Numbered from the stretch's first letter, positions 2,580 through 32,000 are shown. The stretch: DNA of 32,000 bases from Pyrodictium delaneyi (GCF_001412615.1 NZ_CP013011.1:360001-392000); one strand, 5' to 3'. Numbers and translations are program-made. Notes: generated by a model from the sequence alone, not told the origin.

Positions 2580-4010
2580 TCATTCTCGGCGTCTATCGCT
2601 CCGCTGCTGTGCCCCACCGGGGCCGGGCTGCTGCATAGGAGCTGGCGGTTGAGCTTGAGCAAGACCCGCAGCTGGAGCCGCAGGGGCTGGCGGCCGGGCA
2701 GGAGCCAGAGGCTGGCCCTGATAAGGCGGCTGAACCGCTGCGTAGGGGTATGGAGCAGGCTGCCACTGTTGCGGCTGTTGCACAGGGGCCGCCGCGTAGT
2801 AGTGGACCTGGTACTGCTGCGGAGCCGGCGGCTGGGCAGGGGGCTGCAGGTGTAGTGGCTGCGAGTTTGCCTGGTAGGCCAGCGGCTGGGTAGCTTGCTG
2901 GATGTTTGCTGCGTGTGGTTGTCCTAGGGCCTGCTGTGGCCAGGCCTGGTAGCCGGGCCATGGGCTCTGGGGCTGCTGCCCGGGCGGCTGGACTGGCATC
3001 GGCGGTTGCTGTGCTAGTGGCCGGGGCGGGGCGTAGACTGGCGCTGGCGCTTGTCCCTGGGGCGTCTGTGCAGCTGGCTGTGTTGCGAAGGCGCGCTGGT
3101 AGGCGGCGCGTATGTCCTCGTCTAGTAAGTGGAGGTAGATCTGGGTCACCTTGATGTCGTGGTGGCCGAGGAGCCTCTGGACTACTGGGAGTGGGACGCC
3201 ACGGCGGAGCGCCTCGGTGGCGAAGGTGTGGCGCAGCACGTGGGGCCGGACACGGCGTGGGTCGAGGCCAGCGCGGCGGGCTAGCGTCTTGAGCCTCTTG
3301 TAGAGCCCGCTGTAGCTTATCCCAAGCAAGGGGTCGTCGGGGCCGAGCTTCGGGTTAAGAGCTAGCCATATTGCTAGCGCTTGCTCGGTCAACGGGCCAT
3401 AGAGTACTACCCGCTCCTCGCCGTACTTGGCGTTCCTCACGCGTATCTCGCGCCGCCCAGTGTCTATGTCGCGTAGCCGTAGCCCCACTGCCTCCTGGGC
3501 GCGGAGCCCTGTCTCGAACAGTAGCGCTACTATCAGCAAGTCTAGGGGGTCGCGGGCAGCTGATACCAGGCGCTCGACTTCCTCAGGCCGCAGCGCCTCG
3601 ACTCGTGGGCTCCTGGGCTTACGCACAACCGGCACCTTGACGTTCAGGCCGAGCCACTCTAGGAATCCGCGGAGGAACAACGTGTAATAGTGCATCGTTG
3701 TCTGCCGTTCCCTCCTCTCCTCTGCTGGATCGCTGTCACGGCTTCGGGGCCTCTGGAGTCCACGGGTAAGACGGTCATAGATCCACGCGGAGACGTCGCT
3801 GCTGGTTACTTCGCGGAGCCGCTTATCGCCTATAAACGAGAGAAAGTCACTGATAGCTGCCCGGTAAGCCTTTACAGTCTTAGGACTAGCACCAGCTGCT
3901 GCTAGCGCGGCAAGGAACGCCTCCATCGCCTCCAGGTTGCTCCGCTCTAGTATTCCTGGTGGTGGCGGCGGCAGGTCAAACCGCGTCACTACAGAACCCT
4001 TAGAGAACAA
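2580..4010 (-). CDS. Tyrosine recombinase (XerA/XerC/XerD-like) with a long P/Q/A-rich C-terminal extension
   Basis: N-terminal SAM-like core-binding domain ('SPKTVKAYRAAISDFLSF'). Catalytic signature is complete: 'LLFETGLRAQE' (Arg), 'HVLRHTFATE' (H-x-x-R), 'LLGHHDIKVTQIYLHL' (His and the nucleophilic Tyr at ~aa 292). TTG start at 4010. The ORF continues ~184 codons past the catalytic Tyr. Confidence 0.9.
   Translation of the reverse strand: MFSKGSVVTRFDLPPPPPGILERSNLEAMEAFLAALAAAGASPKTVKAYRAAISDFLSFIGDKRLREVTSSDVSAWIYDRLTRGLQRPRSRDSDPAEERRERQTTMHYYTLFLRGFLEWLGLNVKVPVVRKPRSPRVEALRPEEVERLVSAARDPLDLLIVALLFETGLRAQEAVGLRLRDIDTGRREIRVRNAKYGEERVVLYGPLTEQALAIWLALNPKLGPDDPLLGISYSGLYKRLKTLARRAGLDPRRVRPHVLRHTFATEALRRGVPLPVVQRLLGHHDIKVTQIYLHLLDEDIRAAYQRAFATQPAAQTPQGQAPAPVYAPPRPLAQQPPMPVQPPGQQPQSPWPGYQAWPQQALGQPHAANIQQATQPLAYQANSQPLHLQPPAQPPAPQQYQVHYYAAAPVQQPQQWQPAPYPYAAVQPPYQGQPLAPARPPAPAAPAAGLAQAQPPAPMQQPGPGGAQQRSDRRRE
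2583..3086 (-). other. Low-complexity P/Q/A-rich tail of the recombinase ORF (~aa 309-476)
   Basis: By my count about 42 P, 38 Q and 33 A in 168 residues, with interspersed Y/W ('PWPGYQAWPQQ', 'QQYQVHYYAAAP', 'WQPAPYPYAAVQPPYQGQ'). It ends in a charged 'RSDRRRE'. The DNA here is very GC-rich, so all six frames are open. Confidence 0.6.
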
Positions 4011-4107
4011 TTATACAGTCATGAAGGGGGCCGAGGCCTCGCCCCAATAAATACCCTGGTAACACTCCGCTATTCAGAGTCATGAAAGATGAGTTTACTA
4101 CAACCTA

Positions 4108-4464
4108 TTACTCCTCTATGGTCACGTCTTTGGCAGGACACCTGCCTCCCACAATCATGGCGGTACGAGGTAGAGAGTAGTATAGGAGCAGAACGGAGAC
4201 TACAAATTTGATCCAGGAGCCTTCCCCGGATAGAAACAGGTAGAGCCATTGGACACCCAGGAGAGTAAACAACACATCAAAAATGCATACAAGAAGCCTT
4301 TGCTTGCCGTTAGCGACAAGCCAGGCTCCTATAACAGCGCCTAGAACAAGCCCCAATAGGGCTACCTGGAACTGCAAGAGAGACCCCATACTGCTATAAT
4401 AGTACGGTATTATTATAGTTACTATTGACCATACGTGCCATAGTAAATCCCGTAGCGTGTACAC
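4108..4464 (-). CDS. Small hypothetical membrane protein (3-4 predicted TM segments)
   Basis: 118-codon ORF with a GTG start (alternative internal Met 'MGSLLQF'). Hydrophobic stretches 'VWSIVTIIIPYYY', 'ALLGLVLGAVIGAWLV', 'VCIFDVLFTLLGVQWLYLFL', 'FVVSVLLLYY'. GC is lower than in neighbouring genes. No motif recognised. Same strand as the recombinase and 97 nt upstream of it. Confidence 0.4.
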   Translation of the reverse strand: MYTLRDLLWHVWSIVTIIIPYYYSSMGSLLQFQVALLGLVLGAVIGAWLVANGKQRLLVCIFDVLFTLLGVQWLYLFLSGEGSWIKFVVSVLLLYYSLPRTAMIVGGRCPAKDVTIEE

Positions 4465-4958
4465 TCAAGAGGCCTACCTAGAAGCTATGCCAGCGCCTCT
4501 AGGGCCTACGAGGCTGTCACTAATGTGACTTGGCGTTATCAGATGGAGGCCCTCACCAAGTGTAGTAGCCCGCGGAGCCCACAGTCTCCAGCCGGCTTTC
4601 ATTGATGAGAATCTTCAAACTCTCGGATCATCAATACTATGTTGAGCATAAATGCAAAAGATATGCCTCAATAACTATTATGATCTTACTAGAAGTCTCT
4701 AGCGACAATGTGGGACACAAGGTATGCTATAAACCTCAAGATGAAGAGCTTAGGAGATATCCATGATATCGAAGTATAGTGATGATTGTGGACCTGGTGT
4801 TCCACCAGTAATACTCCTAGATATCTCTCCTCATCTCTTAGGCTGTGTCAACAATGGTATACTGTATATTCTAAGATGTTAAATATGGCGTTATTCTTTT
4901 AACGAAGAGGGTTGATAGACATTAGGCGAGCGGTTCTCTCGGCAGGTGGCGAAGAGCC

Positions 4959-6965
4959 ATGGCTACCGAGCAGGGCCTCCCCTTTGGCGAGAAGTATCAT
5001 CCTGCTATCAAGAAGCTGATGGAGCTTCGGCGAGAGAGTCTAGAGAACATTGAAGAGTTCTGGGATAAGAGGGCCCGTGCACTCATCTGGTTCAAGTACT
5101 GGGACAAAGTCCTCGACGACTCGAACCCGCCGTTCTTCCGTTGGTTCGTGGGAGGCGTCACTAACATAACTGTTAACGCTCTCGACCGGTGGATCGAGAC
5201 ACCGGTCAAGAACAAGGTTGCTTACTACTGGGAAGGCGAGCCCGGGGACACCCGCGTCCTCAGCTACTTCGAGCTGTGGCGCGAAGTTAACAGATTCGCC
5301 AAGGTCCTCAAGGACCTCGGTATAAAGCCGGACGACCGCGTAGTAATATACATGCCCATGATACCCGAGCTCCCAATAGCCATGCTAGCTGCTGCACGTA
5401 TAGGCGCTATACACAGCGTAGTCTTCAGCGGTTTCAGCCCCAAGGCGCTCGCCGACCGTATAGTCGACGCTAAGGCTAAGCTCCTGATAACTGCCGATGG
5501 CTACTACCGCCGCGGCAAGGTGATAAACCTCAAGAAGAACGCTGACGAGGGTGTCAGGCTAGCCGAGGAGCAGGGCGTCAAGGTAGAGAAGGTTCTCGTG
5601 GTGAAGAGAGGCGGCCTAGACCTAGACGTGAACATGGTCGAGGGCCGCGACTACTGGTACGACGAGCTAGTAAAGAATGTACCCTATAACACCTACGTAC
5701 CCCCGGAGCCCAGGAAGAGCGACGACGTACTCTTCATACTCTATAGCAGCGGTACAACTGGCAAGCCTAAGGGCATAATGCACAGCGTAGGCGGCTACAT
5801 GGTCTGGACCTACTGGAGCTTCAAGTGGACCTGGGACCCCAGGCCCGACGACGTAATGTGGACCGCCGCTGACATAGGCTGGATCACCGGCCACACCTAC
5901 ATAGTATACGCCCCGCTAATGCACGGCATGACCAACGTTATGTATGAGGGCGCGCCAGACTACCCGCAGCCCGACCGCGTCTGGGAGATAGTTGAGAAGT
6001 ACCGTGTCACAATACTCTACACCAGCCCAACTGCGATAAGGCTATTCCGCAAGTACGGCGACGAGTGGGTCAAGAAGCACGACCTCAGCAGCCTAAGGCT
6101 ACTCGGCAGCGTAGGCGAGCCGATAAACCCCGACGTCTGGAAGTGGTACTACGAAGTAGTAGGCGGAGGCAAGACCCCGATAGTCGATACATGGTGGCAG
6201 ACCGAGACCGGCGCCGCCATGATAGCCCCAGTGCCCGGCATAGCACTAGTGCCGCTCAAGCCCGGCAGCGCTACCTTCCCACTCCCCGGCGTAGACGCCG
6301 ACGTAGTCAACGACAAGGGCGAGCCAACAAAGCCCGGCGAGAAGGGCTACCTAGTGATAAAGCGGCCGTGGCCCGGCATGTTGATAGGCCTCTGGGGCGA
6401 CCCACAGCGCTACATAAGGACCTACTGGCAGCGCTTCAGCAAGCCCGATGAAGGAGTCTGGATCTACTACCCAGCCGACTACGCCGTGAAGGACGAGGAC
6501 GGCTACATCTGGATGCTAGGCCGCGCCGACGAGGTGCTCAACGTAGCCGGTCACAGGCTCGGCACCACCGAGATAGAGGACGCCATACTCGCCCACCCAG
6601 CCGTAGCCGAGGCCGCCGTAGTAGGCATACCCGACCCAATCAAGGGCGAGGTACCACTAGCAGTAGTAGTGCTACGCGAGGGCTACAAGCCCAGCAAGGA
6701 GCTAGAAGAGGAGATCAAGCAGACAGTCCGCAAGATACTAAGCCCCATCGCCGTACCGAAGCGCGTACTCTTCGTCAACAAGCTGCCAAAGACAAGAAGC
6801 GGCAAGATAATGAGGAGGCTGATAAAGGCCGTAGCCACCGGCGCCCCACTAGGCGACGTCAGCACCCTAGAGGACGAGGCCAGCGTCGAGGAGATAAAGA
6901 GGGCCTGGGAGGAGTTCAAGAAGGCAATCGAGGAAGGCGAACGCCTCCTCCGCGAAAGCAGCTAA
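4959..6965 (+). CDS. acs: Acetyl-CoA synthetase (AMP-forming)
   Basis: 668 aa. AMP-binding signature '[11 protein letters not shown]'. Typical Acs blocks 'WWQTETG', '[38 protein letters not shown]' and '[12 protein letters not shown]'. Confidence 0.95.
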
Positions 6966-6986
6966 CCCGGCCCCTAACCCCTAGGC

Positions 6987-6991
6987 TTTTT
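6987..6991 (+). terminator. T5 run just after the acs stop (archaeal oligo-T terminator candidate)
   Basis: 'ctaggcTTTTTag' lies 22 nt after the TAA at 6963-6965. Confidence 0.35.
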
Positions 6992-7339
6992 AGTCGATTT
7001 CACCCCGATCACGACAGCTTTATCACTTTTATCACTTTGGACCTCACCTCCATTCTCACGCATTCCTTAGTGATGTTAGTACAACATGTATCATGAAGTG
7101 GTGATAACAGGACATATAGCTCCTAGAATGGAGAAGGGTATGGGTACCAACCTCAGTATGCCCTTTTCACTTGCCCTCTACTCAGACGCCACTATGTTTA
7201 GAGAAACCTTATAGTATACTTAGAGCACACCAACTATGGTAAGCTGTTACTGTATACCGCTACATCTGTATTGGCCTAGAACTCGCAAGCGAGATTTATC
7301 ATCGCACACTCCTAACCGTGACGCGGTTTGCTAGAGGTG

Positions 7340-9583
7340 TTAGGCCCTGGGCTCTATTACTATGACCTCGTACTCGTCTAGCCTCGGTAGCGTGGTCTCT
7401 AGTGCTCCGTTTTTCGTCTCTGCTTGGAGCTGCTTGTCTCGTAGCGGCAGGTAGACTATGTAGCTGCTGGCTTGGAGGCCTAGCTGCTCTGGGTGTAGCC
7501 GGAGCTTCACGTTGTGTACAGATACTACTGTCGTGGCAGGGTGTACTGCTTCGTGGGTGCCGAAGGAGGCTACTGGCTGGCGGGCGTCGCCTAGTCCGCG
7601 GCTCATTATCCTCTGGTTGTAGGTGTGGTTGATGAGGTGTAGTATGACCCGGTCGCCCTGTCTCCAAGGCTCTGCCTGGACTGTGGAGGGAGCGTCTACC
7701 TCTAAGGGGAGAGGGCCACCGGCGTGGGTTACAGCGTTGTATACGAGTCTCATGTAGTCGGTGAGGCCTAGCCTCCAGTAGTGGCGGCCTAGCTGCCCCG
7801 TAAAGTAGACGCTTCTCCCGGCTCCGTGTCTGTTGACCACTATGGCTGGTGCCTTGGTCTCTGCCCCGAGTGGTGGTGGGGACCTGCCGAGGGTGTATTC
7901 GTCGCCCCAGGGGTACTCTGTGAGTCCTATTCTAGCGGGGGTCTCGGCGCCCTCGGCCGGGTCTACTATCGTGTGCCAGCCTAGCTCGGGGCTTGTACGG
8001 CTCTGGCGGAAGCTGTAATCCATGTCTCCCCAGGGTATAAGGCGACGCTGCAGCCCCCGGGTTACGGGGTGGTTTAGTTGATCTACTACTAGGTAGCTCC
8101 AGTCTAGCCGTAGGAGGCCGCGGAGGTTGGCGCCCAGCGTCTCTGCTGTTGCGAACTCGTAGCGTTCTATGCAGTCGCCGTCCCAGCTGCCTGCGAGGTA
8201 TGTTGCTACGAGGCCCCCACCTTTCTTCACGTACTCTGCTATCTCGCTGGCCGCGAAGTCTGGTAGGCAGACTGTGTTGGCGAGCACTATTACCCGGTAC
8301 CGTTGGAGCGTCTTCAGCTCTATGTCGCGGGCTGAGAGGTACTCTACCGGCACGTGGCTGTGCTGGAGCGCGTAGTAGAACCCACGGACCTCGTCTAGAT
8401 AGTGTTGTGGTTCACTGCGTCCGTAGTGGTCTAGCGTCTTTGTAGAGTAGACTACTGCAGCATAGCGTATCGGTTCGGCGCCGTCGAGGTATTCTTCGAG
8501 GACTTCATGCTCTCTGAACACCTGCTCTGCTGCATCTAGGGCGCTGGGGTCCTGGATGTAGGCTGAAGAGAATATGAGGAGCCACGGTGAGGCGCCGCCC
8601 GCTATGGCTTCGCGTAAACCCTGCCTAATGGCGAGCGGGGACGTGGCTACTGTTGTCCGGTACATGTGGAAGTAGTTCCTAGTAGTCCAAACTGGTTTTC
8701 CACCGCTAACTGCACGGCTTAGCTTACTCATCTCCGCTATAAAGCCGGGTGGTTCGCGGTCTGCTTCACTCGTCTCCACCATTACTATGTCTATCGCGTC
8801 GCGAGCCTCCTCTACAACACGATTATTGCGCCCGCCCCAGCCACCAGGATGGCTATTGTAGAGGAGCGGGGTACCTGGTGCAGTCTCTTGTATCACTCTC
8901 TTTATCTCTCGGAGTTTCTCAGTTACTACCTTGTAGCGCCACTCCCAGAGCGTCCGCCACCTGCTGTCGCTCCAATTCGGGTCTCGAGGCATCTCGTAGC
9001 CGTGCTCACGGCGGAACCGGTCCTGGCACCAGCGGCAGTAACAGCTCTTGTCGGGGTCTGGCTGGTAGCGGAAGCTGTCAAGCAGTATACCCGAAGCGCC
9101 TAGGCCTAGCGCCTCGATTACCTCCCTCTTAACGTGCTCTATGAAGGGGGAGTTGAGACAGAGTATGGGCCATTCAGGCTCATATCCTTGCTCTGAGGTG
9201 GGAACATGTTCTAGCATTATCACCTCGCCATGGCGGTTTATCTGTGCCCAGTCACCATGGAGCTTGTATAGGTACTTGTTAGCTGTATGACCCACCATGA
9301 GGATTACGTGTATACCGCGGCGCCGGGCCTCCTCTAGTGCCTCGCGTACTATGTCGCCTTTCATCTTAGCGTGTACTGGGCCTACAGTGCCGCCACGGTA
9401 GAATATTCTGCCCCAGGCATCCCGGGCGAATATTACTAGGACGTTTGCGTGAAGCCGCTCAGCAAGCCTAACAAGGTCTCGGCCGTGGATACGGGGTACG
9501 TAGACACCGTAACGGTCCTCAATATTGAACTGGAGGACACGTACAGGCTTTTCCCACCACTGTCTGTTAGGGGATGGACCCAC
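7340..9583 (-). CDS. GHL6-type putative glycoside hydrolase with a GH42-middle (trimerisation/GATase-like) domain
   Basis: 747 aa. The N-terminal TIM-barrel-like region fits the GHL6 pattern: 'VLVIFARDAWGRIFYRG', 'GIHVILMVGH', 'WPILCLNSPF', 'GILLDSFRY...SCYCRWCQDRFRREHGYEMP' (C-x-C-x2-C cluster). The middle region 'YRVIVLANTVCLPDFAASEIAEYVKKGGGLVATY' resembles the beta-galactosidase trimerisation domain. Confidence 0.7.
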   Translation of the reverse strand: MGPSPNRQWWEKPVRVLQFNIEDRYGVYVPRIHGRDLVRLAERLHANVLVIFARDAWGRIFYRGGTVGPVHAKMKGDIVREALEEARRRGIHVILMVGHTANKYLYKLHGDWAQINRHGEVIMLEHVPTSEQGYEPEWPILCLNSPFIEHVKREVIEALGLGASGILLDSFRYQPDPDKSCYCRWCQDRFRREHGYEMPRDPNWSDSRWRTLWEWRYKVVTEKLREIKRVIQETAPGTPLLYNSHPGGWGGRNNRVVEEARDAIDIVMVETSEADREPPGFIAEMSKLSRAVSGGKPVWTTRNYFHMYRTTVATSPLAIRQGLREAIAGGASPWLLIFSSAYIQDPSALDAAEQVFREHEVLEEYLDGAEPIRYAAVVYSTKTLDHYGRSEPQHYLDEVRGFYYALQHSHVPVEYLSARDIELKTLQRYRVIVLANTVCLPDFAASEIAEYVKKGGGLVATYLAGSWDGDCIERYEFATAETLGANLRGLLRLDWSYLVVDQLNHPVTRGLQRRLIPWGDMDYSFRQSRTSPELGWHTIVDPAEGAETPARIGLTEYPWGDEYTLGRSPPPLGAETKAPAIVVNRHGAGRSVYFTGQLGRHYWRLGLTDYMRLVYNAVTHAGGPLPLEVDAPSTVQAEPWRQGDRVILHLINHTYNQRIMSRGLGDARQPVASFGTHEAVHPATTVVSVHNVKLRLHPEQLGLQASSYIVYLPLRDKQLQAETKNGALETTLPRLDEYEVIVIEPRA

Positions 9584-26301: not shown

Positions 26302-27087
26302 ATGACAGCCCCAGTAGCTGAGAGACCATATGTTACAGCCAACATAGCCCAGAATTCACAGATACTCGCAGACGATGCTTTTCTAAACCAACTCATGAGT
26401 GCTACTGAGAATGTCAGGCGACTCGAGACAAGGCTATCTGGAACCCATGGACAACTACGAGATCTCATACGTAGCCTCGGACTCGAAACTGGTTTCTACC
26501 TCGTGCTAGTAGAACTCGGCAACATATCTGCAAGGATACTAGTACATAACGGCATTATAACCGCCGCCGAGGCAGCAGTCGAAGGACAAAGACTCTCAGG
26601 GCCCAATGCCGTAAAACTCCTTGACGACGAGGCCTCAGACGAGGCTGTAATAGCCATAGCTAGGCTCCGTCCATACCTCTATCAGTGGAGCCCTAAGATG
26701 ACCGTCTACGTCAAGGGCATAGATCTACAGCACCGGCAGCTCGTACGGGCTGTCAACAACCTCTACCTCTCCTTGCTCTCGGGTAAACCTCGTAGCGTGC
26801 TACAAGGCATTCTAGACTTCCTAGCCGAGTACACGGTATTCCACTTTAGGAGTGAGGAGAGATTCTTCGAGAAGCACGGCTATCCACGGGCCGAACAGCA
26901 CCGGTTAGAGCACCGAAAATTCGTAGAGAGGATAGAGGACTTCCGGATGAAATACCGGACGGGTGAAGCGAGACTCAACATAGACATGTTGATGTTCCTC
27001 GCTGACTGGATACGGGGCCATATAATGAAGAGCGATAAAGACTATGGTGAGTGGCTGAAGCGCCAGGGAGTAGTCAAAACCGTCTAG
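26302..27087 (+). CDS. Two-domain protein: N-terminal DUF4388/PATAN-like domain fused to a bacteriohemerythrin domain
   Basis: The C-terminal ~130 aa carry the full hemerythrin ligand set: 'GIDLQHRQL', 'FHFRSEERFF', 'AEQHRLEHRKFV', 'DWIRGHIMKSDKDYG'. The N-terminal 'LRDLIRSLGLETGFYLVLVELGNISARILVHNGIITAAEAAVEGQRLSGPNAVKLL' resembles DUF4388. Confidence 0.85.
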   Translation: MTAPVAERPYVTANIAQNSQILADDAFLNQLMSATENVRRLETRLSGTHGQLRDLIRSLGLETGFYLVLVELGNISARILVHNGIITAAEAAVEGQRLSGPNAVKLLDDEASDEAVIAIARLRPYLYQWSPKMTVYVKGIDLQHRQLVRAVNNLYLSLLSGKPRSVLQGILDFLAEYTVFHFRSEERFFEKHGYPRAEQHRLEHRKFVERIEDFRMKYRTGEARLNIDMLMFLADWIRGHIMKSDKDYGEWLKRQGVVKTV

Positions 27088-28551: not shown

Positions 28552-28854
28552 TTATGCTTGCTTTTCCTTCTCTATAACAGCTGCTGTGCCATATGCTAGC
28601 AACAATACCCACTCGCCACCTACACCTACTACGCGGCGTGTCTCTATTCTGAGCCCTAGCACCGCGTTGGCACCCATCTTCTTGGCATCATGTCTTAGTT
28701 TCTCGAGGATAACGTCCAGCTCGGCCTCTAGTCCTGCTACTGTAAGGCTTATCGGCCTTGATGCGTAGATGAGTCCCTTTAGCTCCTTAACCTGGTAGCC
28801 TACTGGCTGCTCGATACTAAGTAGTAGTACATCCTCTGACATAGCTGGGCTCAC
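28552..28854 (-). CDS. YbjQ/UPF0145-family small protein
   Basis: 100 aa. 'VGYQVKELKGLIYA' ... 'AKKMGANAVLGLRIETRRV...LLLAYGTAAVI' follows the UPF0145 pattern (GA.AV.G.........GTAV). A minus-strand T5 run (plus-strand AAAAA at 28524-28528) lies downstream. Confidence 0.65.
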   Translation of the reverse strand: MSPAMSEDVLLLSIEQPVGYQVKELKGLIYASRPISLTVAGLEAELDVILEKLRHDAKKMGANAVLGLRIETRRVVGVGGEWVLLLAYGTAAVIEKEKQA

Positions 28855-28966: not shown

Positions 28967-30175
28967 CTAGGCTCTCTTCTCCAGTCTCCTTAGAAGAGCT
29001 GTCGTCAGCATAGTGACTCTTACCTTGCCTAGGCCCCGGGCTAGGAGGAGGCCATGCTGGAGCACGGTATAGCACTTAATGCATGGCGTAACGACTTCGC
29101 GTACGTTGTGACTCATTACTCTGTTTGCTCTCCAGCGGTACACCTTGTTACGTGTCTCGACGAATGGCTTCTCGCGGACATAGTTGACGCCGCCCCCGCC
29201 GCCGCAGCAGAATGTGTACGGCGGTTTATCCTTCATCCGTCTAGCACCAGATAGCTTCGTCACTATGGGGCATGCATAGCTGTAGCCGAAGCGGCAGAAG
29301 CCACAGCTCGTGAAGAGTACAGCATTCTTATCCTCCTCGTCAGGCTTGAGTACACTGCTGGGGGCACGTTTATAGACTAGTGTGAATACGTCTACGAATT
29401 CTATCCCTCCTAGTCTTGTAAGTCCATACTTCTCAGCTATGTGTACAAGTTTTATGTCGGCACCACAAGCCGACATTATAACAGTCTTTGCACCTAGCCT
29501 CTTGGCCTCCTCGATAACTTTCTCGAGCATTTCTGCACCTATGTCCGGTCTCGCGGCGTCAACCGCTACATTGCCGCCTAGGTCGAGGGCACTAGGAGAA
29601 ACCGTCACCTCTACACCTATGCCCCGTAGTAACTTGAGCGTCTCAGTAAGCCTGTCAGGGTAGAGCGTGGTCTCGAATGGTGAGGGCACGTATAGGGCTT
29701 CTCCAGGGCCGCCCGGCTCGACGCCAGCCTTACGAGCAGCCTCCTCAAGGACGCGGCGAGGCTCACTAGGGTCTACGGTGAAGCTGTGGCCAGACCGGCT
29801 CCCGTTGACCGCTACCTGCTCTATACTCTTCAATGCTTTGCCTTCAAGACTCAGCCTCATCTTTGCTGCATGTACTAGCCTCCAGATCTCTATGCCGTAT
29901 GGACACAGAGCTGTACATGCGCCGCACATGCTGCAAGTATAGAGGGTGTAGAGGTCTTCCTCAGATGGTTTATCACCTAGGAGAATGCGGGCTGCTACTT
30001 GTAGGCGTCGAGGCGGCGATAAACGAGGGTCCCTAGTGGCTCGATATGATGTGCATCCTGCTAGACATACTAGGCACCGACTACAAGTTGCCAGTGCTTC
30101 TCGTGCAATCTCCTCTGCCTCAGAGAGCATTGCTTGTAGGCCGCTTTGCCTAACCCCGGGCATCTTTAACGCCAT
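28967..30175 (-). CDS. HdrD/DsrK/GlpC-like iron-sulfur protein (two 4Fe-4S ferredoxin motifs plus cysteine-rich CCG domains)
   Basis: 'CSRCLVCLAGC' and 'CSMCGACTALCP' (CX2CX2CX3C), followed by 'MSACGADIK', 'TSCGFCRFGY', 'FCCGGGGG' and 'TPCIKC', which are typical of CCG domains. Confidence 0.85.
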   Translation of the reverse strand: MALKMPGVRQSGLQAMLSEAEEIAREALATCSRCLVCLAGCTSYRATRDPRLSPPRRLQVAARILLGDKPSEEDLYTLYTCSMCGACTALCPYGIEIWRLVHAAKMRLSLEGKALKSIEQVAVNGSRSGHSFTVDPSEPRRVLEEAARKAGVEPGGPGEALYVPSPFETTLYPDRLTETLKLLRGIGVEVTVSPSALDLGGNVAVDAARPDIGAEMLEKVIEEAKRLGAKTVIMSACGADIKLVHIAEKYGLTRLGGIEFVDVFTLVYKRAPSSVLKPDEEDKNAVLFTSCGFCRFGYSYACPIVTKLSGARRMKDKPPYTFCCGGGGGVNYVREKPFVETRNKVYRWRANRVMSHNVREVVTPCIKCYTVLQHGLLLARGLGKVRVTMLTTALLRRLEKRA

Positions 30176-30294
30176 GCTAATAACCCTGGAGGTTGCAGCC
30201 TAAAACTAATCTATAGAGTGTATATCGCAAATTTTCAAAATAACACCTATAAAGCCGTTAACTATCACGGCCTCTCGGGAGGGATTAAATAAGG

Positions 30295-30936
30295 ATGGTA
30301 ATCGATGAGGCCGCATTACGCGCCGCTATAACCGACGCGCTGCTACGCTCTGCCGGCCTTCCAACTCTAGCCGATGTGAAGAAGATGCTCTCGGAAGCGG
30401 AATCAAAAACCACAGTAACTATTGTTACCGACGATTCTAAGTACGGGAAGCACGGAGTCGATGTAGTTAGGAATCTCCTAACAGATTATGACTTTGTGGA
30501 AATTAAGGTGCTCGAAAAGTCTAGTTGGCCAGAGGATTTACCTCCACCACTCATAGTTATTGGCGGCAAGCTTGAAGGTAGGCTACTATTCTACGGGGCA
30601 CCGGTCGATATACTTTCACCTATGTTCATGCTTGCTGTCGCAGCGTCATGCGGAGCATGGAAGCCTAAGACCTGCAAGGATATTAGTGAAGCAAGAGGCC
30701 GAGCAAGACTTTACGTTGTACCGGGTCTACCCTGTGCACGCGCGATATACAACTCTCTGCCCATCGTGTACTGCAGTAATGAGGCCGAGCTGGAAATAGT
30801 AAACGTAGAGGCATTCTATACACTCAATAAACCGCTACCAGTAAAGCAAGTCCCCACCTTTGTATCACCAAGCGGCAAGAAGCATTCCTCGACACCTAGA
30901 AGCGAGTTTGAGGTGCTCAAGTGGTGGCACAGCTAA
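30295..30936 (+). CDS. Protein-disulfide-oxidoreductase (PDO)-like double thioredoxin-fold protein with degenerate active sites
   Basis: Collinear by eye with P. furiosus PDO: 'VTIVTDDSKYGKHG' (where PDO has CxxC), 'GRLLFYGAPVDILSPMF', 'ARLYVVPGLPCARAIYN' (CxxA where PDO has CPYC), and cis-Pro block 'VKQVPTFV'. An oligo-T stretch lies after the stop at 30953-30958. Confidence 0.55.
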   Translation: MVIDEAALRAAITDALLRSAGLPTLADVKKMLSEAESKTTVTIVTDDSKYGKHGVDVVRNLLTDYDFVEIKVLEKSSWPEDLPPPLIVIGGKLEGRLLFYGAPVDILSPMFMLAVAASCGAWKPKTCKDISEARGRARLYVVPGLPCARAIYNSLPIVYCSNEAELEIVNVEAFYTLNKPLPVKQVPTFVSPSGKKHSSTPRSEFEVLKWWHS

Positions 30937-31070
30937 GCCTACGTAGATTATCTCTTTTAAATGTCTTATTTCGAATTGCTTGCAATAAACAGTTATAGGT
31001 AGAAGTAAACACCCGTAACATAAACTCACGGGGACCCCGAAAGTACGGCCCTACTGGAGGTGAACAGTTA

Positions 31071-31316
31071 ATGGCACGTGTAGAAGAGTTAGACCTTACA
31101 AAGCTGACTGCTCTCTGTGGCGACTTTAGTGTCCATGTACTCAGCAAGCTTGAGGGTCTTAAGTCGGGCGAGAGACTCGTGGTAAAGGTTAGGAAAGACG
31201 ACAAAGACCTACTAGAAGCTGCGGTCTCGGCTGTTAGGGATGCAGGTATCGCTAAGCCTGTAGGAGAAGGCGAGGAAGGAGAGATATTCTACGTGATACT
31301 AGAGAAGCAGAGGTGA
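31071..31316 (+). CDS. TusA/SirA-like small protein
   Basis: 81 aa. 'LDLTKLTALCGDFSVHVLSKLEGLKSGERLVVKV...EIFYVILEK' follows the TusA pattern (LD..gL.C....l..k..l..l..GE.L.v ... y.i.i.K) with a single Cys16. GGAGGTGA (31056-31063) lies 7 nt before the ATG. Confidence 0.55.
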   Translation: MARVEELDLTKLTALCGDFSVHVLSKLEGLKSGERLVVKVRKDDKDLLEAAVSAVRDAGIAKPVGEGEEGEIFYVILEKQR

Positions 31317-31324
31317 CAGTCTCA

Positions 31325-31945
31325 ATGATTTCTAACACCAGTTTACTTTCTTTCACAACTAATTATGGATTCATTGTACTTCTGATTGCTGCTCTAGCAC
31401 CCTTAGTATATGTCGGTATCTATGGCTCAGCTGGCTACCGGTTTGTCTACAGCACCATTGCCCGGCTTCTAAAGGTGATACCACAAGCATCAATGCTTGA
31501 TCACCCTTCGCCCCTAGTAGGGCTAGCTGCTGCTATACTTCACACGGGCGTCATACTAGCAGTCATCGCTCATCTAGTCCTCTTCGCTGCACAATGGAAT
31601 GGAGGCCTCTACCAGCTAACACCCTCTATAGTGCAGACTGTACTCTACGCGAAGAAGACTGCAGCCATCATGATAGTCTCTTCGGCGTCCATATTAGCTG
31701 CTACCAGGCTCTACACTGGCGTACGCTTCGGTCTATTCAGCTGGAAGCACGCATGCCTCCTCGCTGGAGACTTGCTTCTAATAGCACTCGCTGCTTCCGG
31801 TCTCCTCATAAAGGCTGGCATTAACTACGTGATAGCACACGTAATCCTTGGGTATGTTGCTATAGCGTATTTCCTGATAGCGTTCTTCACCGAACATCGG
31901 CTTTACTCCCGGGTCCTCGCCGAGAAGCGTATACTAGAGGTGTAA
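31325..31945 (+). CDS. NarI/DsrM/HdrE-like five-TM putative di-haem b-type cytochrome
   Basis: Five hydrophobic helices. His pairs H77/H87 ('ILHTGVILAVIAHLV') and H176/H195 ('IAHVILGYVAIAYFLIAFFTEH'), numbered from the GTG at 31313. The ATG at 31325 sits 8 nt after GAGGTGA (31310-31316). The GTG at 31313 overlaps the TusA-like stop and is the alternative start. Confidence 0.55.
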   Translation: MISNTSLLSFTTNYGFIVLLIAALAPLVYVGIYGSAGYRFVYSTIARLLKVIPQASMLDHPSPLVGLAAAILHTGVILAVIAHLVLFAAQWNGGLYQLTPSIVQTVLYAKKTAAIMIVSSASILAATRLYTGVRFGLFSWKHACLLAGDLLLIALAASGLLIKAGINYVIAHVILGYVAIAYFLIAFFTEHRLYSRVLAEKRILEV

Positions 31946-31952
31946 AGCCCCA

Positions 31953-32000
31953 TTGAAACCCAAGACATTAACTATCGCAGCGATAGGTCTTATTGCCGTA
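31953..32000 (+). CDS. Start of a further gene (N-terminal hydrophobic/signal-anchor segment), truncated by the window end
   Basis: The TTG at 31953 lies 10 nt after GAGGTG (31937-31942). It reads 'MKPKTLTIAAIGLIAV' with no stop before nt 32000. Confidence 0.3.
   Translation, partial: MKPKTLTIAAIGLIAV

Follow-up and report, generated by a model that had tools for sequence, protein, structure and literature searches.

A Pyrodictiaceae gene cluster that looks like an undescribed relative of complexes linking quinones with protein-bound sulfur

Relatives of DsrMK and HdrDE couple membrane quinones to S-S bonds. To our knowledge only two of their substrates are established, the heterodisulfide of coenzymes M and B (CoM-S-S-CoB) and the DsrC trisulfide, and for most of the DsrK/HdrD-like paralogues that genomes encode no substrate is known. 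What, then, would such a protein act on in Pyrodictium delaneyi, where a DsrK-like iron-sulfur (Fe-S) gene faces genes for three small cysteine proteins and a histidine-rich membrane protein? The locus occupies positions 28,967 to 32,000 of a 32,000-nucleotide stretch of the genome (GCF_001412615.1, NZ_CP013011.1:360001-392000), referred to here as the window. A first-pass annotation made from this DNA alone had proposed a module of the HdrDE/DsrMK type whose dedicated substrates might be the co-encoded proteins resembling TusA and protein disulfide oxidoreductase (PDO). With a probability that we put at roughly one in two, the cluster encodes a quinone-linked protein disulfide, persulfide or trisulfide oxidoreductase, that is, a DsrMK/HdrDE-type membrane module specific to the Pyrodictiaceae that would act on an S-S bond carried by small dedicated proteins. 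We know the cluster only from this family, hyperthermophilic archaea of the deep sea, and it looks to be a relative, so far undescribed, of the complexes that connect quinones with protein-bound sulfur.

The genes at issue follow an RNA ligase gene and a YbjQ-like gene, both on the minus strand. Next on that strand is the Fe-S gene (28967-30175; 402 aa), and across a 119-bp divergent intergenic region (30176-30294), which on direct reading is AT-rich with TATA-like elements such as TATAAA, a plus-strand series begins. It encodes a 213-aa PDO-like protein (30295-30936), an 81-aa TusA-like protein (31071-31316) with one Cys, at position 16, an orphan membrane protein, a 203-aa membrane-anchored protein of the thioredoxin/glutaredoxin fold with a CPHC motif, and a 220-aa CcdA/DsbD-like protein, after which comes a convergent DUF4258 gene. 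The membrane gene can be read from a GTG (31313-31945; 210 aa), as in the mechanical open reading frame (ORF), or from an ATG (31325-31945; 206 aa), where its homologues begin. The window holds the 5' end of the 203-aa gene, with a TTG start (31953-32000, plus strand). Its remainder was read from contig NCQP01000007.1 of the draft assembly of P. delaneyi strain Hulk (GCA_002194565.1), called L001 below, which encodes the membrane-protein ORF and runs 10 kb past the window end (window coordinate = L001 coordinate + 21312). There the 203-aa gene is complete (L001 10641-11252) and the CcdA/DsbD-like gene lies behind it (L001 11281-11943).

A 134-bp gap with a TTTAAA element separates the 213-aa gene from the 81-aa gene, and the last four plus-strand genes are packed tightly, with GGAGGTGA-type Shine-Dalgarno-like sequences. 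Within the window, GGAGGTGA, AGAGGTGA and GAGGTG stand 7 to 9 nt ahead of the starts of the last three genes (GGAGGTGA 7 nt upstream of the 81-aa gene), and the junctions are tight. Our reading of the sequence agreed with the first-pass annotation on these signals and junctions, and the divergent region, the ORFs and the motifs that it had described were all present. The promoter and terminator scan was of a bacterial type and is uninformative for an archaeon. The window ORFs are real genes and not chance ORFs, because their homologues are conserved in the same order in other genomes.

We began with the subunit that would carry the chemistry. The 402-aa protein has two ferredoxin motifs, C31-x2-C34-x2-C37-x3-C41 and C81-x2-C84-x2-C87-x3-C91, and one complete CCG motif made up of C291, C323-C324-G and C365-x2-C368; all of the ferredoxin Cys and the CCG residues are invariant in the family alignment. 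Its Pfam matches above threshold were Fer4_8 (E = 5.7e-10; 40 bits, cut-off 27), Fer4_17 and CCG, the last over a single stretch (residues 286-372; 28.3 bits against a cut-off of 20.6). The best NCBIfam matches were HmcF (7.6e-18), DsrK (1.2e-13) and TmcB (1.8e-13). Pfam, NCBIfam and the alignment thus bear out the earlier assignment of this protein, with its two CX2CX2CX3C motifs and CCG cysteine cluster, to the HdrD/DsrK family. The NCBIfam scores, 50 to 65 bits, fall far under the equivalog cut-offs of 400 to 750 (for the DsrK model NF045796, 50.5 bits against 400), so the protein is not an orthologue of HmcF, DsrK or TmcB. No signal peptide was found in it.

The first CCG region is degenerate: only the invariant Cys237, within ACGAD, is left, the other positions being Ser, Pro, Val or Ala, and neither Pfam nor the alignments revealed the second complete CCG motif of an HdrD/HdrB-type protein. 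One noncubane cluster together with a strictly conserved, probably catalytic Cys is the hallmark of DsrK, HmcF and TmcB, whereas HdrD and HdrB have two clusters (PMC10861901). As a reference we used a metagenome locus, L022, that holds a genuine DsrM-DsrK pair (546 and 745 bits, both over their cut-offs, which for DsrK is 400). In an alignment with the L022 DsrK, the two ferredoxin motifs coincide, each protein has a complete second CCG motif, and the same CCG motif is degenerate in both (YVPSPFE...GGN... versus FVTPSGD...GGN...). Cys237 falls on the Cys of the DsrK GECGH motif; its flanks differ, ACGAD against the (G/T)ECGH of DsrK, HmcF and TmcB, while the architecture and the position of the Cys match genuine DsrK. 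With one complete CCG motif and a lone invariant Cys aligned with the catalytic Cys of DsrK, the protein is, as judged from its sequence, an HdrD/DsrK family member that is probably of the single-cluster DsrK/HmcF/TmcB type and is not of the two-cluster HdrD type. The first assignment to the family stands and can be narrowed in this way.

By sequence, the closest solved relative of the Fe-S protein is mycobacterial EtfD (9ojn_A, E = 4.4e-11), which has five transmembrane (TM) helices, two [4Fe-4S] domains and two CCG domains and links electron-transfer flavoprotein (ETF) to menaquinone (PMC13083937). By this analogy a soluble redox protein would pass electrons through the Fe-S and membrane subunits to quinone with no S-S chemistry at all, and the small co-encoded proteins would be docking or assembly factors. 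EtfD contains a linear [3Fe-4S] cluster, and its His583 completes the coordination of the noncubane cluster, making that cluster non-catalytic (PMC13083937). In our alignment the Fe-S protein has C237-G-A-D at the capping stretch, with no His, and the four linear-cluster Cys of EtfD are absent, a pattern that fits DsrK instead. No ETF or dehydrogenase genes lie near the cluster, and the co-encoded partners are all cysteine proteins. We consider an EtfD-like module very unlikely, and the Fe-S site appears to have more in common with a catalytic site of the DsrK kind than with an EtfD-type wire.

The membrane protein is an orphan. None of the NarI, DsrM, HdrE, HmcE and TmcC profiles in Pfam (PF02665) and NCBIfam matched any of six family members (E values up to 1-5). 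A word-indexed search with the protein returned 6 homologues, and an exhaustive HMMER search of 1.84 billion representatives with its profile returned 2, from its own family only. Its AlphaFold2 (AF2) model was weak (pLDDT 63), with long helices at residues 8-37, 65-95, 104-139, 144-165 and 170-204 plus a short amphipathic helix, and a Foldseek search of the PDB with this model, at a pLDDT of only 63, gave no match at E <= 0.001. Matches of the profile to TAL effectors in the PDB sequence search were rejected as a repeat/low-complexity artefact.

Four histidines are conserved in this family. In the 210-aa numbering, H77 and H87, spaced 10, lie in helix 2, and H176 and H195, spaced 19, lie in helix 5. 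In an alignment of 10 sequences, the most distant at 21% identity, only seven columns are invariant; three of these hold His, and conservation of the remaining His is at least 90%. In the nine sequences from the main cluster type (type 1, described below) all four are invariant. E. coli NarI and the genuine DsrM of L022 show the same layout with spacings of 10 and 18, and local motifs are similar in the three proteins: (L/F)H-x-G...H in helix 2 and H-(L/V)-x-L-G in helix 5. Positive charges (Lys/Arg) in loops 1 and 3 and the C-terminal tail predict an N-out/C-in topology, with H77 and H195 towards the cytoplasmic side, and the five AF2 helices and this charge distribution are as expected for a NarI-type anchor with a cytoplasmic C terminus. 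Among 4698 ORFs, E. coli NarI was the best match from outside the family (E = 0.021), with NarI H56/H66 on H77/H87, and hhalign found the family collinear with NarI/DsrM over 140 to 160 columns at E values (0.21-0.27) that are not significant. Global hhalign against a nearby Isp1-like cytochrome b yielded no meaningful alignment, and an iterative search for NarI-like proteins in the fetched loci found one only, the L022 DsrM.

The earlier description of this protein as a NarI/DsrM-like five-helix protein consequently survives in part: the helices are there, and so are the His pairs spaced 10 and 19, but no NarI, DsrM or HdrE profile matches. The first-pass annotation had itself named a missing match of this kind as grounds for giving up its proposal, and in Pfam and NCBIfam the match is, formally, missing. 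DsrM sequences keep little beyond their His residues and helices (PMC10504309), and for that reason we do not take the missed detection as strong counter-evidence. With no profile match, the NarI-like reading rests on the five helices, the four invariant His, their NarI/DsrM-like spacing, the topology and the gene context. We take the protein for a putative membrane anchor that would interact with quinone and probably carries two haems b; its membership of the NarI/DsrM family is not established. Its histidines might instead bind metal or line a channel, with the DsrK-like protein soluble or docked elsewhere. This would agree with the lack of a profile or fold match to any cytochrome b family, at a model confidence of only 63, and with a His spacing that differs between type-1 and type-2 proteins. 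It agrees less well with the His residues themselves, which supply three of the seven invariant columns and lie inside helices 2 and 5, as predicted, arranged as in NarI/DsrM and with a topology to match, and with a gene that always accompanies a DsrK-type subunit, whose known partners are NarI-type cytochromes b (PMC10861901). We give a protein that is not a cytochrome little chance.

Two candidate substrates of a DsrK-like subunit are encoded between these genes. For the larger, the 213-aa protein, Pfam, NCBIfam and PDB sequence searches with the protein and its family returned no match, and its homologues form eight clusters, all from Pyrodictiaceae. Its AF2 model has a pLDDT of 94.0 and a predicted TM score (pTM) of 0.91, and Foldseek matched it over its full length to the AhpF N-terminal domain (NTD) and to archaeal and Aquifex PDOs in the PDB (1zyn, 4xvg and 6il7 for the AhpF NTD, and 1a8l, 1j08, 2ywm, 2ayt, 2hls and 4mnn; E values from 2.6e-9 to 2.3e-5; TM score on the query, TMq, 0.56-0.73, and 0.58-0.73 for 1zyn, 1a8l, 1j08, 2ywm, 2ayt and 2hls). 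As modeled, the protein is two tandem thioredoxin folds of the PDO/AhpF-NTD class, which supports the double fold proposed at first pass. No CXXC occurs anywhere in the family alignment, whereas PDO has two and the AhpF NTD one, in its C-unit. The N-unit has no Cys, and the active-site position of the C-unit carries only C147, in VVPGLPC(A/V)(R/K); strand 1 of this second unit leads into a helix whose first turn holds C147, at the CXXC site of thioredoxin folds. The invariant Cys are C127 (in the linker), C147 and C160, and a VPT/VPA motif of the cis-Pro type is conserved. Because the C-unit has a single active-site Cys147 and the N-unit none, the modeled protein is a monothiol member of the PDO structural class.

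The smaller candidate, the 81-aa protein, belongs to a family of 17 clusters, found only in Pyrodictiaceae and none with a Pfam domain; one is named "TusA-related sulfurtransferase" by JGI. L7, D8, C16, G17 and D18 are invariant and form an LD...LCGD motif, and L-D and (L/V)-C-G-D are kept in 18 of 18 sequences. The earlier reading of this protein as TusA-like with a single Cys had been tied to conservation of that Cys, and the Cys is invariant throughout the family. Its kinship with TusA did not fare as well. Pfam TusA (PF01206) does not match the protein, which has LCGD in place of the Cys-Pro-x-Pro active-site motif. NCBIfam gave no meaningful match either, and a search of PDB sequences with the family profile came back empty. 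Pairwise hhalign of the family against TusA, YedF, TsuB and the protein of locus L038 gave P = 0.01, placing Cys16 on TusA Cys19 with a GE(R/T)L strand in register. Among the 4698 ORFs, a profile of E. coli TusA, YedF and TsuB ranked the 81-aa proteins right behind genuine TusAs, at E values of only 0.1-0.2, and in the reverse search genuine TusA was the best match from outside the family (E = 0.5). We treat TusA kinship as a lead that is weakly indicated and not statistically established, and the protein as a putative sulfur or thiol carrier.

The ORF that runs off the window proved to be a real gene. Its 203-aa product has an N-terminal membrane anchor, an invariant CPHC and further conserved Cys residues, and each orthologue has one to four N-x-S/T sequons, which with the anchor suggest an extracytoplasmic location. 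Profile matches, of the glutaredoxin and disulfide-isomerase kinds, were weak (Glutaredoxin PF00462, E = 0.008; PedC/BrcD, 0.016). The 220-aa protein encoded next, with which the operon continues, has multiple hydrophobic segments and, as in CcdA/DsbD, about six TM helices with a Pro-preceded Cys in each half: NPCT in the first and LLPC(S/T) in the second, both invariant in six orthologues. It matched DsbD_TM (PF02683, E = 0.019; 14.7 bits against a cut-off of 27.1) and DsbD (PRK00293, E = 0.024) weakly and the ArsG family over its full length (E = 1.9e-6; 27 bits against a cut-off of 200), and no PF02683/PF13386-type profile matched it above threshold. With all scores below threshold, the two proteins look like a CcdA/DsbD protein and its anchored thioredoxin.

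How far does this set of genes hold together? The six-gene order recurs in metagenome contigs related to P. delaneyi (L002-L006), in P. occultum (L010, L011) and in a Hyperthermus metagenome-assembled genome (MAG) (L007, L018), as well as in three more divergent Pyrodictiaceae lineages (L012-L015, L100, L101) at 42 to 55% identity. Within Pyrodictium this conservation is weak evidence, because the upstream genes and much of the region around the cluster are syntenic too. In H. butylicus (L102, CP000493) the upstream context differs (an aldehyde:ferredoxin oxidoreductase gene), and the Fe-S, TusA-like and membrane genes are intact and adjacent. Frameshifts or sequencing errors split the PDO-like gene there over three frames (L102 6278-6922); neither an anchored thioredoxin-fold gene nor a CcdA-like gene is present, and a major facilitator superfamily (MFS) transporter gene follows. 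On contig L003, truncation of the Fe-S and PDO-like genes at about 6985-7085 was rejected as a natural deletion, since a run of 100 N there is a scaffold gap.

A second cluster type was found in one Pyrodictiaceae MAG and two vent metagenome contigs (L009/L021, L098 and L099; L009 7500-10500, L098 4446-7231 and L099 470-3255). In these type-2 clusters the TusA-like gene is divergent, with 31 to 36% identity to the window protein, and the operon consists of the Fe-S gene (30% identity), a gene for a cytoplasmic 172-aa thioredoxin-like protein with CPAC, whose start overlaps the Fe-S stop, and one for a five-helix protein, 217 aa long, whose helices 2 and 5 each carry a His pair. No CcdA-like or anchored thioredoxin-fold genes are present in the type-2 clusters. 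Hidden Markov models (HMMs) built solely from type-1 sequences find the type-2 Fe-S (1e-89) and TusA-like (1e-9) proteins and miss the membrane and thioredoxin-like ones; because the HMMs do not link these last two, we equate them between types by position, size and His/Cys motifs and do not claim homology in sequence. What persists, then, is a core of four: the DsrK-like subunit, the membrane subunit rich in His, the TusA-like protein and a protein of the thioredoxin fold. It is the joining of DsrK-like, thioredoxin-like and membrane genes in one type-2 operon that argues for a functional unit. The genes of the neighborhood are co-conserved across the Pyrodictiaceae. On L009 the type-2 segment has 31 to 45% GC inside flanks of 54 to 61% GC, beside an orotate-phosphoribosyltransferase-like gene; this GC island means that the cluster was probably acquired as a block, from a lower-GC donor, and the four-gene core may move between genomes as a unit.

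At the same L009 site (5324-5944 and 7151-7426), about 40 N-terminal residues of the phosphoribosyltransferase are duplicated 1.2 kb away, on either side of two small ORFs, and this duplication may be the footprint of a small integrated element. On L098 the transferase gene directly adjoins the TusA-like gene, with no insert.

Scans with the Fe-S protein returned three loci in genomes and 80 in metagenomes, the latter nearly all unrelated ferredoxin/CCG proteins. The next-closest Fe-S relative outside the cluster (L024) is GlcF-like and lies beside an FAD oxidase gene, and no cluster members were seen outside the Pyrodictiaceae in the genome and metagenome scans. A literature search for HdrD/DsrK with TusA, thioredoxin/PDO, Pyrodictium and Hyperthermus likewise found no description of the cluster, and there is none in the paper on strain Hulk (PMC5556600).

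Expression data came from the proteome of the P. delaneyi type strain Su06 (PMC8105010, supplement 2), in which we placed the cluster at Pyrde_0384-0389 by gene order alone, using Pyrde_0382 (RNA ligase) and Pyrde_0393-0395 (Isp2, Isp1 and hydrogenase small subunit) as anchors. The products of Pyrde_0384 and Pyrde_0385 are both expressed. Pyrde_0384 ("Fe-S oxidoreductase") was quantified in all Su06 samples and did not change significantly; Pyrde_0385 ("Uncharacterized protein", the PDO-like protein) was significantly up on ferrihydrite relative to nitrate, with a reported log2 fold change of 3.98 and an adjusted P value of 8e-9; and Pyrde_0388 was listed without quantitative values (PMC8105010). 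Because ferrihydrite raised only Pyrde_0385 of the two, they are not obviously co-regulated.

These observations bear on another account, in which the plus-strand operon is a self-contained CcdA and thioredoxin pathway for thioreduction, as in cytochrome c maturation or the handling of extracytoplasmic disulfides, and the DsrK-like gene is an unrelated syntenic neighbor. Pairs of a CcdA-like gene and an anchored thioredoxin-like gene are classic in the maturation of cytochrome c. For P. delaneyi, 17 c-type cytochromes are predicted, and ferrihydrite raises Pyrde_0385, but not Pyrde_0384, together with a multihaem cytochrome and enzymes of haem synthesis (PMC8105010). In type 1, moreover, the Fe-S gene lies on the opposite strand, and the RNA-ligase and YbjQ genes beside it are just as syntenic. 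Yet the type-2 Fe-S, thioredoxin-like and membrane genes form one overlapping operon with no CcdA, and H. butylicus has lost the upstream synteny, CcdA and the anchored thioredoxin and still keeps the Fe-S gene beside the TusA-like and membrane genes. Known CcdA pathways, in addition, have no role for a five-helix protein whose four His are invariant and which lacks a conserved Cys. A coincidental neighbor is, in our judgment, improbable by a wide measure.

We therefore favor the quinone-linked S-S oxidoreductase. Quinol would be oxidized at the orphan five-helix subunit, and electrons would pass through two haems b, held by H87/H176 (outer) and H77/H195 (inner), before they enter the cytoplasmic DsrK-like subunit, where both [4Fe-4S] clusters would relay them to the one noncubane CCG cluster. 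The CCG cluster and the lone Cys237 would reduce a disulfide, persulfide or trisulfide whose S-S bond may involve the TusA-like Cys16, the Cys147 of the PDO-like protein that lacks CXXC, or both; in type 2 the partner would be the CPAC of the thioredoxin-like protein. Jointly, the two single-Cys proteins would do what falls to the two Cys of DsrC in the case of DsrMK. In most lineages an outward branch, made up of the CcdA/DsbD-like protein and the anchored CPHC protein, might carry reducing power, in the form of thiols, across to the outer side of the membrane.

The same components could run in reverse, as a quinone-reducing thiol oxidase reminiscent of DsbB/VKOR: Cys electrons would enter through the PDO-like and TusA-like proteins and pass by way of the DsrK-like cluster and the membrane subunit to quinone, and in the full cluster electrons from the anchored CPHC protein would cross through the CcdA-like protein, so that disulfides would be made in a disulfide-rich hyperthermophile proteome. 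CPHC is the active-site motif of E. coli DsbA, and PDO-family proteins, whose fold is present here, are associated with disulfide formation in hyperthermophiles. Dsr-type modules run both ways, in sulfur oxidizers and reducers (PMC10504309). The type-2 clusters and H. butylicus, however, lack the CcdA-like and anchored proteins altogether, and for that reason the core must have a cytoplasmic role. Known CcdA/DsbD proteins, furthermore, carry reducing power outward. These organisms are strict anaerobes living on H2, so their quinone pool should be reduced (PMC8105010). We hold the oxidase direction to be unlikely.

Several observations weigh against the quinone-linked S-S oxidoreductase itself. 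EtfD, nearest by sequence among the solved relatives, has the same architecture but employs it to take in electrons from ETF, with no S-S chemistry. For the membrane protein, no NarI, DsrM, HdrE, HmcE or TmcC profile matched, the profile-profile scores were insignificant, and the structural search was blank, though with a weak model; the type-1 HMMs miss the type-2 membrane and thioredoxin-like proteins, and the helix-5 His pair of type 2 is spaced 10 and not 19, both type-2 pairs being spaced 10. TusA kinship is weak (no Pfam match; hhalign P = 0.01). In the main cluster type the Fe-S gene is divergently transcribed and much of the surrounding region is also syntenic, and ferrihydrite raised Pyrde_0385 but not Pyrde_0384 (PMC8105010).

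A more specific form of the proposal is that the cluster encodes an undescribed respiratory or thiol-relay complex in which the DsrK-type subunit and the di-haem orphan reduce or form an intermolecular Cys16-Cys147 disulfide or trisulfide, a "split DsrC", and also feed the CcdA-like/CPHC branch in most lineages. Extracytoplasmic thiol redox would then be driven from the quinone pool and not from NADPH and thioredoxin reductase. We offer this tentatively, and regard it as doubtful.

Should the quinone-linked S-S oxidoreductase be borne out, its substrates would form a third class, and this is directly testable because the candidates are encoded beside the enzyme, are small and carry one Cys each; they should also express easily. 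If the CcdA branch is truly fed by the module, it would newly explain what drives thiol chemistry outside the cytoplasm, and the maturation of cytochrome c, in hyperthermophilic archaea. The membrane subunit raises the further prospect that NarI-type anchors may diverge past all profile detection while keeping only their four His, which matters for the annotation of archaeal respiratory chains. The ecological reach is narrow, because the cluster is confined to one archaeal family of H2-oxidizing reducers of Fe(III), nitrate and sulfur.

Other features lie in or near the window. The 100-aa YbjQ-family gene (28552-28854, minus) is on the same strand as the Fe-S gene, 112 bp downstream of it, and is kept there in all type-1 clusters except that of H. 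butylicus; its product has no Cys and matches TIGR03884, a Methanococcus selenium-binding protein family, weakly (E = 0.0028). About 3.5 to 7.3 kb past the window end (L001 14086-17941), a group-1g [NiFe] hydrogenase small subunit gene is followed by genes for a 270-aa Isp1-like membrane protein, with weak TmcC/HmcE matches (E = 4e-9), and a 472-aa second HdrD-like (Isp2-like) protein, so a second pair of CCG protein and cytochrome b lies close by. The hydrogenase small subunit, Pyrde_0395, is labeled "Hyaluronate lyase" in the published proteome table, an apparent mis-annotation. Further upstream, a plus-strand gene at 26302-27087 encodes 261 aa, of which the N-terminal 125 or so match no family and are fused to a bacteriohemerythrin domain at the C terminus (NCBIfam, E = 1.2e-38); the gene is missing from the syntenic position in more distant Pyrodictiaceae loci. 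A gene-poor segment of about 950 bp at 4010-4959 has the lowest GC of the window (46% versus 55-63%), with no tRNA, no Rfam match and one weak 20-nt direct repeat only.

Among the known systems close to the cluster is DsrMK, the core of DsrMKJOP, with its substrate DsrC. DsrMKJOP acts with DsrC as a menaquinol:DsrC-trisulfide oxidoreductase. The Pyrodictiaceae cluster has the same two [4Fe-4S] motifs, the single complete CCG motif and a lone Cys aligned with the DsrK Cys, the same kind of five-helix membrane partner with four His spaced 10 and 18-19, and a small dedicated Cys protein alongside. It differs in that the Fe-S protein scores 50 bits against the DsrK cut-off of 400 and has ACGAD instead of GECGH, the membrane subunit fits no DsrM/NarI model, no dsrAB or dsrC is nearby, and the carriers are a single-Cys TusA-like protein and a CXXC-less PDO-like protein instead of a two-Cys DsrC.

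HdrDE, the heterodisulfide reductase that depends on methanophenazine, and HmcEF/TmcBC follow the same design, a NarI-type membrane anchor with a cytoplasmic CCG Fe-S subunit, and HmcF and TmcB are among the best NCBIfam matches. HdrD, however, has two noncubane clusters (PMC10861901), whereas the Fe-S protein here has one, and there is no CoM/CoB metabolism; compared with HmcEF/TmcBC, there are no Hmc/Tmc cytochrome c subunits and the scores are far below the family cut-offs. EtfD (9ojn), the closest solved structure by sequence, has five TM helices, haem b, two [4Fe-4S] domains and CCG domains, but it is one fused polypeptide with a linear [3Fe-4S] cluster and a His-capped noncubane cluster, whereas the proteins here are separate subunits with no linear-cluster ligands and no capping His.

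The small proteins each recall a familiar family. Like TusA, YedF and TsuB, the 81-aa protein is about 80 aa long, with a single conserved Cys after an LD-containing first strand and identical spacing from Cys to the GE(R/T)L strand; it differs in having LCGD rather than CP-x-P and no Pfam match, and the likeness is not statistically secure. With PDO of P. furiosus (1a8l) and the AhpF NTD (1zyn), the 213-aa protein shares two tandem thioredoxin folds (TM 0.66-0.73 over the full length), but it has no CXXC in either unit and no detectable sequence similarity. As in CcdA/DsbD with ResA/CcmG, a protein of about six helices with two invariant Pro-Cys motifs stands beside an anchored CXXC thioredoxin-fold protein, with weak full-length DsbD_TM/DsbD matches that are all under the family thresholds; here the CXXC is CPHC, and the genes share an operon with a putative cytochrome b and the TusA-like protein, while the type-2 and H. 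butylicus clusters lack them. Modules of this general design are well known, and what is new is the set of partners, a PDO without CXXC, a TusA-like protein with LCGD, CcdA and a thioredoxin-fold protein with CPHC, together with the orphan membrane subunit.

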